A DNA stretch of 12,349 nucleotides from positions 1 through 12,349 of the forward strand of contig JALUCS010000074.1 in the NCBI GenBank assembly GCA_027050205.1. The letters run 5' to 3'. This DNA comes from a candidate division WOR-3 bacterium. Lineage in GTDB: Bacteria > Hydrothermota > Hydrothermia > LBFQ01. Numbering within the stretch: position 1 is the first letter of the stretch; each line of letters starts with the position of its first letter. The position numbers and the translations under genes are program-made. Shown in pieces: positions 1,321-3,697 of the stretch. The notes beneath the pieces are model-generated. The model did no database searches. It saw only the letters and a list, made by a program, of their open reading frames with translations, and had not been told where the DNA came from.

Positions 1321-1355
1321 ACTGCCGAGATTCTACGGATGGCATCCATCCCCTT

Positions 1356-1374: not shown

Positions 1375-1461
1375 GGAGAGGTGCCCGAGCGGCCGAAGGG
1401 GCGCGATTCGAAATCGCGTGTCCCCGCAAGGGGACCGTGGGTTCAAATCCCACCCTCTCCG
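1375..1461 (+). tRNA. tRNA-Ser, anticodon CGA; CCA not encoded
   Basis: Acceptor GGAGAGG/CCTCTCC with discriminator G; D arm with GG; anticodon arm CGCGA-TTCGAAA-TCGCG; long variable arm GTCCCC-GCAA-GGGGAC; T arm GTGGG-TTCAAAT-CCCAC. Followed by CTT, not CCA. Confidence 0.97.
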
Positions 1462-1463
1462 CT

Positions 1464-2411
1464 TTGGCGATAAAGGTCCTCGGAGGGAACTCCAACCCCG
1501 TAGTCCTGCGTGGTATATGCGCGCACCTCGGCATAGAGCCGACCAAGCATTTTGTCGGCAGGTTCTCCGACGGTGAGATAAGGGTTCAGATAGAGGAGAG
1601 CGTACGGGGACACGACGTCTTCATTGTGCAGTCTACCAACCCTCCCGCCGAGAACCTCCTTGAGCTTCTCCTGATAGCCGACGCCGCCCGCAGGGCCTCG
1701 GCCGCTCGCGTAACGGCCGTCATCCCCTACTTCGGGTACGCCCGTCAGGACAGGAAGGACCGTCCGAGGGTCCCCATATCCGCCAAACTCGTCGCCAACC
1801 TCATAGAGGCCTCCGGTATAGACAGGCTCCTGACGGTAGACCTCCACGCCGACCAGATTCAGGGCTTCTTCAACATCCCTGTAGATAACCTCTACGCCAC
1901 CCCGATATTCCGGGAGCATTTCCTGAAGCTCTTCCCGGAGGGGCTGGATCCGGAGAGGTGGGTGGTGGTGTCCCCCGACGTCGGCGGCATAAAGAGGGCG
2001 AGGCTGATAGCCGAGAAGCTCTGGAACCTCCCCCTCGCCATGGTGGATAAGCGGAGGCCCAGACCCAACGTCTCCGAGGTGGTGAACGTCATCGGGGAGG
2101 TGGAGGGGAAGGAGGTCCTGCTTGTGGACGACATCATAGACACGGGGAACACCATAGCCAACGCCTCCCACGCCCTGATTGAGAGGGGGGCCAAGAGGGT
2201 CCTGGTGATGGCGACACACGGCCTGTTCTCCGGGAGGGCGAGGGAGATTTTGAGCGAGGCCCCCATTGAGAGCATCCTGATAACCAATACGGTCTTCCGC
2301 CGGGAGAGGGCACTACCGGACAGGACGGAGGTCTTGGACATCTCCGGCCTCCTCGCCGAGGCTATAAAGCGAATACACAGCGGCGGGTCCGTCTCCGCCC
2401 TCTTCCTCTAA
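1464..2411 (+). CDS. prs: Ribose-phosphate pyrophosphokinase (PRPP synthetase, class I)
   Basis: Motifs FSDGEI, ESVRG, PYFGYARQDRK, DLHADQIQGFF, VVSPDVGG, VDKRR, DDIIDTGNT, ATHGLFS. The track start at 1437 lies inside the tRNA; in-frame TTG 1464 gives MAIKVLGGNSN, a normal Prs N-terminus. Confidence 0.97.
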   Translation: MAIKVLGGNSNPVVLRGICAHLGIEPTKHFVGRFSDGEIRVQIEESVRGHDVFIVQSTNPPAENLLELLLIADAARRASAARVTAVIPYFGYARQDRKDRPRVPISAKLVANLIEASGIDRLLTVDLHADQIQGFFNIPVDNLYATPIFREHFLKLFPEGLDPERWVVVSPDVGGIKRARLIAEKLWNLPLAMVDKRRPRPNVSEVVNVIGEVEGKEVLLVDDIIDTGNTIANASHALIERGAKRVLVMATHGLFSGRAREILSEAPIESILITNTVFRRERALPDRTEVLDISGLLAEAIKRIHSGGSVSALFL

Positions 2412-2578: not shown

Positions 2579-3697
2579 CTACTTCTTGGCTTCCTTCTTT
2601 CCGCCCTTCTTGTCCCTGATGGAGTACTTCTCTATCCACTCCTCAAGCCGGCGGCGGGCCTCCCAGTCGGGTATCTGGATGGGGGGCGTCTTCATGAAGT
2701 ACGCCGAAGGCTCCACTATGGGACCGGCCAAGCCGTTGTCCTTGGCCAGCTTGGCGGCCCTTATGGCGTCTATCATAACGCCGGCGGAGTTGGGGCTGTC
2801 CCAGACCTCCAGCTTCACCTCAACGTTGAGGGGTACGTTTCCGAAGGTGGTACCCTCCATGCGGATGTAGGCCCACTTCCTGTCCTTGAGCCACGGGATG
2901 TAGTCCGAAGGCCCGACGTGGATGTTGTCGTCCCCTATATCGTACGGTAGGAGAGACCTGACGGCGTTCGTCTTGGATATCTTCTTGGAGTGGAGCCTCT
3001 CCCTCTCCAACATGTTGAGGAAGTCGGTGTTCCCGCCGAAGTTTATCTGGTAGGTCCTCTCAAGCTTCACGCCGCGGTCTATGAAGAGCTGGACGAGGGT
3101 CCTGTGGAGGATGGTGGCCCCCACCTGGGACTTGATGTCGTCCCCTATAACGGGAAGGCCGGCGTCTTTGAACCTCTTGCCCCAGTAGTCAGACGTGGCT
3201 ATGAAGACGGGTATGCCGTTGACGAAGGCGGCTCCGGCCTGAAGGACCTGCTCAACGTACCACTTGGTGGCCTCCTCGCTCCCTACGGGCAGGAAGTTCA
3301 CGACCACGTCTACGCCGAGGTCCTTGAAGATCTTGGCTATGTCGTCCGTGGGACCGGGGGCCTTGACGATGACGTCCTTCAGGTACTTCCCTATGCCGTC
3401 GTGGGTCATCCCCCTATACACCTTGGCGTTGAGCTTGGGGACGTCCGTGAACTTGTAGGTGTTGTTGGGGGGGGCGAAGATGGCCTCGGAGAGGTCCTTA
3501 CCCACCTTGCGGGCGTCTATATCAACACCGGCAACGAACTCTATATCGCTTATGTGGTAGCCTCCGAAATCAACGTGCATTATTCCGGGGATGAAGTCGC
3601 CCGGCTTCGCGTTCCTGTAAAAGTAAACACCCTGTACGAGGGCGGAGGCGCAGTTCCCCACGCCTATTATAGCAACCCTTATCTTTTCCTTTGCCAT
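2579..3697 (-). CDS. ino1: myo-Inositol-1(3)-phosphate synthase
   Basis: [18 protein letters not shown]ossmann motif, [50 protein letters not shown] and SAYFMK match the short prokaryotic MIPS family. Confidence 0.97.

Follow-up and report, generated by a model that had tools for sequence, protein, structure and literature searches.

Flush tRNA-gene junctions in an order of candidate division WOR-3 bacteria, with prs two nucleotides behind tRNA-Ser(CGA) as a putative near-leaderless message

The locus described here lies in a 12,349-nt stretch of DNA, referred to below as the window (contig JALUCS010000074.1, assembly GCA_027050205.1), from an uncultured, heat-loving bacterium of candidate division WOR-3. 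ARAGORN finds one tRNA gene in the window, a CCA-less tRNA-Ser(CGA) on the forward strand at positions 1375–1461, whose acceptor strands can be read from the sequence (GGAGAGG at 1375–1381 pairs with CCTCTCC at 1454–1460) and which ends with the discriminator G1461; the span given by the program, 1375–1462, counts C74 in. The two nucleotides CT (N74–N75, 1462–1463) separate the discriminator from prs (1464–2411, forward strand), which encodes a ribose-phosphate diphosphokinase of 315 aa and opens with TTG (1464–1466), followed by GCG ATA AAG. This 2-nt spacing behind a CCA-less tRNA-Ser was first pointed out in a sequence-only reading of the same DNA, and sequence and ARAGORN agree on it. If the transcript were cut after the discriminator (N73), CT would be the whole predicted leader of the message. 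The identity of Prs is given by NF002320 (418 bits against a cut-off of 297, with the match beginning at residue 3) and by TIGR01251, where the match begins at residue 4, corresponding to profile position 2; judged from these alignments and from the relatives described below, the position of the start codon is well fixed. We also considered an in-frame GTG at 1437, inside the tRNA, and rejected it as a start because a one-base shift of the spacer (2 nt vs 1 nt) among the genomes of the family puts it out of frame in six of twelve. Neither the sequence nor a motif search gave a Shine-Dalgarno (SD) word before the prs TTG, as the sequence-only reading had stated.

A promoter of the tRNA-prs unit is predicted on the forward strand at 1347–1362, with TAAAAT at 1356–1361, 13 nt before the tRNA, and its score of 17.2 in a promoter matrix built for this genome compares with a training median of 15.2. 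On the reverse strand lies a divergent waaA-like Kdo transferase gene (208–1320), whose NCBIfam matches are below curated cut-offs; a −10 box (TAGAAT, 1330–1335, reverse strand, matrix score 14.5) is predicted 9 nt before its TTG, and the waaA mRNA is thus likely to be promoter-led and leaderless, a local contrast to prs. Convergent with prs is a myo-inositol-1-phosphate synthase-like gene (2579–3697, reverse strand; profile match below the curated cut-off), by which a terminator-like hairpin is found at 2553–2534.

The junction was compared across 41 genomes, all incomplete assemblies and, where related, not independent samples, comprising 19 of the order (12 of the same family and 7 of a sister family) and 22 others. 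prs was matched in 39 of the 41, and 30 loci were examined (12 in the family, 7 in the sister family and 11 in other orders). In all 12 family genomes tRNA-Ser(CGA) is followed by a prs TTG whose place in the protein does not change; six genomes have it 2 nt behind N73 and six have it 1 nt behind, and the variable arm and the codons diverge. The record of Ca. Caldipriscus shows an identical tRNA-prs junction, with 1 nt spacing, and this puts the family within WOR-3 (PMC12542636). In the sister family tRNA-Ala lies upstream of prs in five genomes, with the TTG at 3, 3, 8, 9 and 9 nt, and the other two genomes have a longer spacer that carries its own TAAAAT. Among the 11 loci in other orders, eight lack any tRNA closer than 400 nt, and the remaining three have one more than 20 nt away. 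The sequence-only reading had stated that prs commonly follows tRNA-Gln with a normal spacer, and this is borne out by 26 of 79 outside loci, where the first in-frame start is at least 12 nt away. Such tRNA-Gln-prs operons also put prs downstream of a tRNA, but they mostly encode CCA and have spacers of 12 to more than 200 nt. Unlike an SD-led tRNA-mRNA operon, the present locus has no SD 4–12 nt before the prs start outside the tRNA.

The layout is not confined to prs. Distances from each tRNA to the next gene were tallied in the present genome (G000), in one genome each of a sister genus (G007) and the sister family (G017), and in two genomes of other orders (G020 and G019). A uniform rule was applied: of the ORFs downstream of a tRNA that have 45 aa or more, the one reaching furthest was chosen, and its first ATG, GTG or TTG was taken as the start. 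The G020 tally excludes a tRNA that lacks a standard T-loop as well as one weak call. By this rule a start lies 0–4 nt after N73 (a flush start) behind 12 of 43 tRNAs in G000, 28 of 45 in G007 and 22 of 44 in G017, and behind 0 of 44 and 0 of 43 in G020 and G019, respectively. The rule misses Trp-rpmG at 3 nt in G017, and in G000 it admits cmk, whose flush start is likely false given that its domain begins at residue 41, so that 11 of the 12 junctions in this genome are credible. In the three genomes of the order the spacer histogram reads 4, 24, 14, 14 and 6 for 0, 1, 2, 3 and 4 nt, and then at most 3 per position up to 13 nt; TTG is used by 39 of these 62 flush starts. In four cases the rule puts the start at 0 nt. 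One of them is purB in G007, which has no other in-frame start within 120 nt; for these four a cut right after N73 would be required. In G000 none of the 43 tRNA genes encodes CCA, and N74 is C or T (31 and 12, respectively), N75 is T in 41 and N76 is T in 41. tRNA-Phe, tRNA-Ile(GAT) and tRNA-Ala(GGC) do not appear in this list of 43, probably owing to assembly gaps.

The flush partners in G000 are genes of unrelated function, namely L28, L33, NuoH, GatC, Rrf2, a Gfo/Idh/MocA enzyme, an OmpA-domain protein, DUF4321 and a MurA-like enzyme (PF00275); a tRNA-Val-ahcY junction is present in the sister genus. Since the partner genes mostly differ between the two families, the layout appears to have been recruited repeatedly. 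The tRNA-to-start survey that the sequence-only reading had called for thus gives a spacing conserved in 12 of 12 family genomes and flush starts order-wide. The same survey does not support its further suggestion of a special tie between PRPP synthesis and tRNA maturation: prs shares this position with dozens of genes unrelated to it, and the tRNA beside it is tRNA-Ser in the family but tRNA-Ala in the sister family. Another genus of the order (g3) has the layout more rarely, at 4 of 9 tRNAs in G012, most of which were preselected for a nearby NTG.

A pattern scan of 242 genomes across the phylum proved too noisy to use, with counts of 13–35 in 16 order genomes, 8–9 in genus g3 and at least 17 in 19 of 224 outside genomes. 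In a partial follow-up of outside genomes, an ORF at 0–4 nt was found for 5 of 17 tRNAs in G021, 1 of 16 in G032, 1 of 15 in G040, 0 of 10 in G036 and 0 of 1 in G191, and these ORFs, judged without Pfam, are mostly short, cross the next tRNA or have a later ATG. The G021 figure concerns tRNAs preselected for a nearby NTG, and four of its five passing ORFs have at most 68 aa. Together with the probable false start of cmk, this speaks for the reading that flush starts are accidents of U-rich trailers, in which TTG arises easily from TTT-rich sequence and the real start is elsewhere. For the order, we regard this as extremely improbable. Flush tRNA-gene starts exceed chance, at 12 of 43 tRNAs in G000 against none in the two genomes of other orders. 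Among trailers holding any NTG-type start at 0–4 nt, that start heads the downstream ORF in 12 of 15 cases in G000, 28 of 30 in G007 and 22 of 28 in G017. Thirty-three of 49 flush ORFs tested in two relatives have a Pfam match at E 1e-8, and in 21 the domain begins within 10 residues of the start, including L28, L31, L33, L19 and NDK; by these matches the flush ORFs are real genes. The ribosomal proteins begin with their usual N-termini. For prs itself, the next in-frame start in the sister genus is 43 nt further on, inside the domain.

Comparison of the same gene pairs inside and outside the order suggests the direction in which the spacing changed. In Trp-rpmG, the gene has an SD in both outside genomes, with a spacer of 16 nt in G020 and 28 nt in G019, and lies at 3 nt without SD in G000, G007 and G017; the spacer of Leu(UAA) and a DUF4321-like gene is 12 and 10 nt outside the order and 1 nt inside. 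These pairs would seem to have collapsed from longer or SD-led spacers to flush ones within the order. In G019, 21 of 43 spacers measure 10–16 nt and none is shorter; these A/U-rich spacers hold no SD and three TANAAT motifs, and SD-less spacers outside the order thus stop near 10 nt. About 10 nt may be the floor beside an intact tRNA and 0–4 nt the mark of a free 5′ end, although the 10–16-nt class could itself reflect a cut. For other orders this class can be read in two ways: as the minimum space for a ribosome next to a folded tRNA, or as the product of cleavage some 10 nt downstream, after which RNase PH would trim the rest. We also note that the tRNA-Arg anticodons of G019 are TCG, GCG and CCG, with no ACG among 43 tRNAs, which suggests inosine-free decoding.

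How this bacterium starts translation elsewhere in its genome bears on whether a nearly leaderless message could be read. Our own gene finder gave 1868 genes in G000, of which 791 have unambiguous starts; 356 of these carry a −10 box 5–11 nt upstream but no SD word, 210 have an SD word but no such box, 8 combine the two and 217 have neither. A −10 box at this distance hence precedes 364 of the 791 clear starts, so that about 46% look leaderless, and an SD word precedes 218. TTG opens 42 of the 356 genes with a −10 box only, and the leaders of about 0–4 nt that the −10 boxes imply would match the tRNA spacers. From these motifs the organism probably reads leaderless or near-leaderless mRNAs routinely. 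Loss of the anti-SD was considered as a trivial cause and rejected, since CACCUCC is intact in the 16S rRNA and the SD word is in use at the 218 starts just mentioned. The 16S 3′ end (contigs C12 and C17) has GAAC before ACCUCC, where the usual sequence is GAUC. The promoter matrix, trained on 330 −10-box promoters of G000 and modelling its main promoter type, finds a match before 38 of 42 tRNA genes. This main type has no −35 box; its TANAAT is preceded by a C at a distance of six bases in 92% of the 330 sites, and its flanks are C-rich.

It could be argued that a promoter inside the tRNA gene, recognised by another sigma factor, makes prs a primary leaderless transcript; the genome, judged by motif, makes many such mRNAs, and the matrix covers the main promoter type. 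We hold this to be very improbable. A promoter within the tRNA was also what the sequence-only reading had named as evidence against itself, and no matrix match stands before prs, where the best score is −21 against a 5th percentile of 10.2 for the training sites. At all 16 of 16 hand-picked tRNA-adjacent starts neither an SD nor a matrix match was found at the motif level. Moreover, the end of the T-loop is 15 nt upstream of the start and so falls beyond the 5–11-nt window, and the many tRNAs concerned do not share one acceptor-strand sequence.

We therefore turn to processing, and consider it fairly probable that a cut at the discriminator would release a translatable, near-leaderless prs mRNA. 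In this scheme the tRNA promoter would give rise to a tRNA-prs hybrid transcript, co-transcription being likely; RNase P would trim the tRNA 5′ end; and a putative endonuclease would cut at or next to the discriminator, after N73 or possibly after C74 where it is encoded. The freed tRNA would then receive CC and then A, and the remainder would be a nearly leaderless prs mRNA on whose 5′ end ribosomes could load. Speculatively, UUG starts and leaders of 1–4 nt would damp the output of strong tRNA promoters.

The chief rival to this scheme holds that the uncut hybrid is translated with the tRNA as its 5′ leader, and that the tRNA is freed later by 3′–5′ exonucleases (PNPase, RNase R or an RNase II-like enzyme) or by a transcription stop in the U-rich trailer. 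No extra endonuclease is needed, the trailers are indeed U-rich, and PNPase is found; RNase R is present in 41 of 41 genomes, and all 19 order genomes have a further enzyme of the RNB family (RNase II-like). The latter accompanies RNase R in only 2 of the 22 others. Its gene (G000:C122:20201-21034 and relatives) may encode a trimmer that substitutes for RNase PH. A preprint reports that mitoribosomes use some unprocessed junctions, but also that structured junctions block initiation in mitochondria (bioRxiv 10.64898/2026.07.30.741833). At the present locus a G+C-rich stem of 7 bp ends 3 nt before the start codon, and selection beside a folded tRNA should have lengthened the spacers, as in the 10–16-nt class, rather than giving 0–4 nt. 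Folding with ViennaRNA predicts base pairing of the start region within the precursor and an accessible start after release; this carries little weight, as the predicted fold did not reproduce the cloverleaf. Translation of the uncut hybrid hence agrees with the enzymes found but is at odds with the geometry, and we regard it as unlikely, though worth serious consideration.

The enzyme inventory agrees with cleavage at the discriminator in part. In G000 the gene for RNase P RNA is present (RF00010, 192 bits), and two nucleotidyltransferases were found; in the PDB they come closest to 4WBY/1VFG and to 3WFO, presumably the Aquifex A- and CC-adding enzyme pair. The sequence-only reading had asked after a CCA-adding enzyme and after rnz, and had assumed RNase Z as the cutter; the former is thus accounted for, whereas an rnz gene was not found. 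RNase Z exceeded the cut-off in 0 of 41 genomes with TIGR02651 and TIGR02650, both of which gave matches in the control genomes. Weak TIGR02651 matches below cut-off occur in 26 genomes, G000 not among them, and in G000 itself, which is 93.5% complete, there is no match at E 0.001. An armless RNase Z-like protein exists in 5 of 19 order genomes; in G000, a profile that we built from eight such proteins hit only two proteins, namely the beta-CASP nuclease at E 1e-7 and a glyoxalase-like one at E 0.002. Four of the five metallo-beta-lactamase-fold proteins of G000 were scanned (the contig-cut L066 was left out), and these belong to other families. RNase E/G was found in 0 of 41 genomes, and RNase J was not found in G000, to which that search was confined.

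HARP, a protein-only RNase P, has a scattered distribution within the class, occurring in the sister family and three other families (G012-G018, G020, G022, G024, G026, G028, G030, G032, G035 and G037) and in 0 of 12 genomes of the family itself; conversely, the beta-CASP nuclease is present in 9 of 12 family genomes and 0 of 7 in the sister family. Each is confined to one of the two families, and both were rejected as an order-wide cutter. HARP is reported to cut the tRNA 3′ side at least 13 nt downstream (PMC12217051), and such a cut would destroy the prs start. RNase Y, found in 41 of 41 genomes, is left as the default candidate because it is the only named endonuclease besides RNase P in all order genomes, although cuts of such precision would be required of it. 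Stand-alone RNase PH was not found in any of the 19 order genomes and is present in 22 of 22 others, as expected if no trailer were left to trim; its absence across the order counts as one evolutionary event.

RNase Y also figures in an either-or fate of the transcript, in which an RNase Y-like cut within the first codons yields the tRNA and destroys the message, a minority of transcripts is translated through transient opening of the acceptor stem, and the layout, having arisen through genome compaction, acts to damp expression. The ubiquity of RNase Y, the enrichment of TTG, which suggests low output, and the HARP 3′ cuts reported to fall 13–16 nt downstream (PMC12217051) are in line with this idea. 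However, the highly expressed L28, L33, L31 and L19 genes have the flush layout and start with ATG, and RNase PH, the trailer trimmer of model bacteria, was not found in the order. We judge such an either-or fate to be decidedly improbable.

Some findings weigh against discriminator cleavage with leaderless translation as well. The searches for candidate cutters (RNase Z, E/G and HARP, and in G000 RNase J) gave no order-wide match, and 39 of 62 flush starts are TTG, a poor leaderless start in model bacteria. In mycobacteria and Caulobacter UUG is described as poor or inactive as a leaderless start, with each extra leader base costing about twofold (PMC4633059, PMC8459731). A beta-CASP-type 5′–3′ exonuclease could also attack the released 5′ end, the homologue TTHA0252 being such an exonuclease (PMC4229858). 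At somewhat less than an even chance, we propose that the order uses tRNA genes as promoter-plus-leader cassettes, that an endonuclease other than RNase Z, E, J or HARP would cut up to three-fifths of its tRNAs precisely at the discriminator to give leaderless, often UUG-started mRNAs of core genes (ribosomal proteins, prs, purB, murA and nuoH), and that this new route of tRNA 3′ maturation may have made RNase PH dispensable. The interpretation offered by the sequence-only reading is partly supported.

tRNA punctuation of animal mitochondrial transcripts was reportedly described by Ojala, Montoya and Attardi in 1981, and the sequence-only reading likened the prs junction to it. The likeness holds in that CCA-less tRNA genes abut start codons that have no SD or promoter of their own, and that the mRNA 5′ end would come from tRNA 3′ processing and be read leaderless. 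It fails as regards RNase Z/ELAC2, of which no homologue was found here, and the single long precursor: this is a free-living bacterium whose tRNAs head separate transcription units, 38 of 42 with their own promoter motif, and in which about a quarter of genes have SD-led translation.

Among bacteria, Bacillus subtilis RNase Z cuts CCA-less pre-tRNAs 3′ of the discriminator and CCA is added afterwards (PMC1874595). The 0–4-nt spacing implies the same cut site, but rnz was not found here and the downstream product would be a message rather than a discarded trailer. Comparable too are two leaderless-rich genomes in which tRNA 3′ ends are cut endonucleolytically by an enzyme that the reports leave unnamed: in Propionibacterium acnes such cuts were mapped without an obvious tRNase Z (PMC3848588), and in Streptomyces coelicolor they fall within CCA (PMC4681348). 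These differ in that the same texts report no translated cut product, and P. acnes keeps RNase E, J and PH. The promoter-made leaderless mRNAs of Deinococcus, mycobacteria and Caulobacter share SD-less initiation at or near the 5′ end, whereas the flush starts have no −10 box 5–11 nt upstream and many have UUG and leaders of 1–4 nt. The nearest prokaryotic parallel seems to be the tRNA-snoRNA dicistrons of Archaea, known from plants as well, where RNase Z releases the downstream RNA and tRNA 3′ processing thereby makes the 5′ end of a functional product, although that product is non-coding and RNase Z is present (PMC4247193).

In the open full-text literature, subscription papers being beyond our scope, we found no report of bacterial mRNAs made by tRNA processing. 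Three points are new here: a distribution confined to one order, with outgroups as controls; SD-led gene pairs whose spacers seem to have collapsed; and RNase Z and RNase PH missing from the enzyme set. If the proposal is true, translatable leaderless mRNAs would arise routinely in bacteria through RNA processing as well as through the choice of transcription start. Until now this route has rested mainly on the disputed MazF case, the best-cited bacterial example of processing-made leaderless mRNA, which other laboratories failed to reproduce (PMC9031893). The proposal would also make it possible to study mitochondrial-type tRNA punctuation in bacteria, the sister orders serving as a natural control because the same gene pairs there retain an SD or a 10–16-nt spacer, and would point to a missing tRNA 3′ endonuclease, the same question as in P. 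acnes. In practice, gene callers will misplace flush TTG starts. Not every neighbour has followed the layout: in the sister genus, tufA behind tRNA-Gln keeps an SD and a 19-nt spacer, though most tRNA neighbours there are flush.
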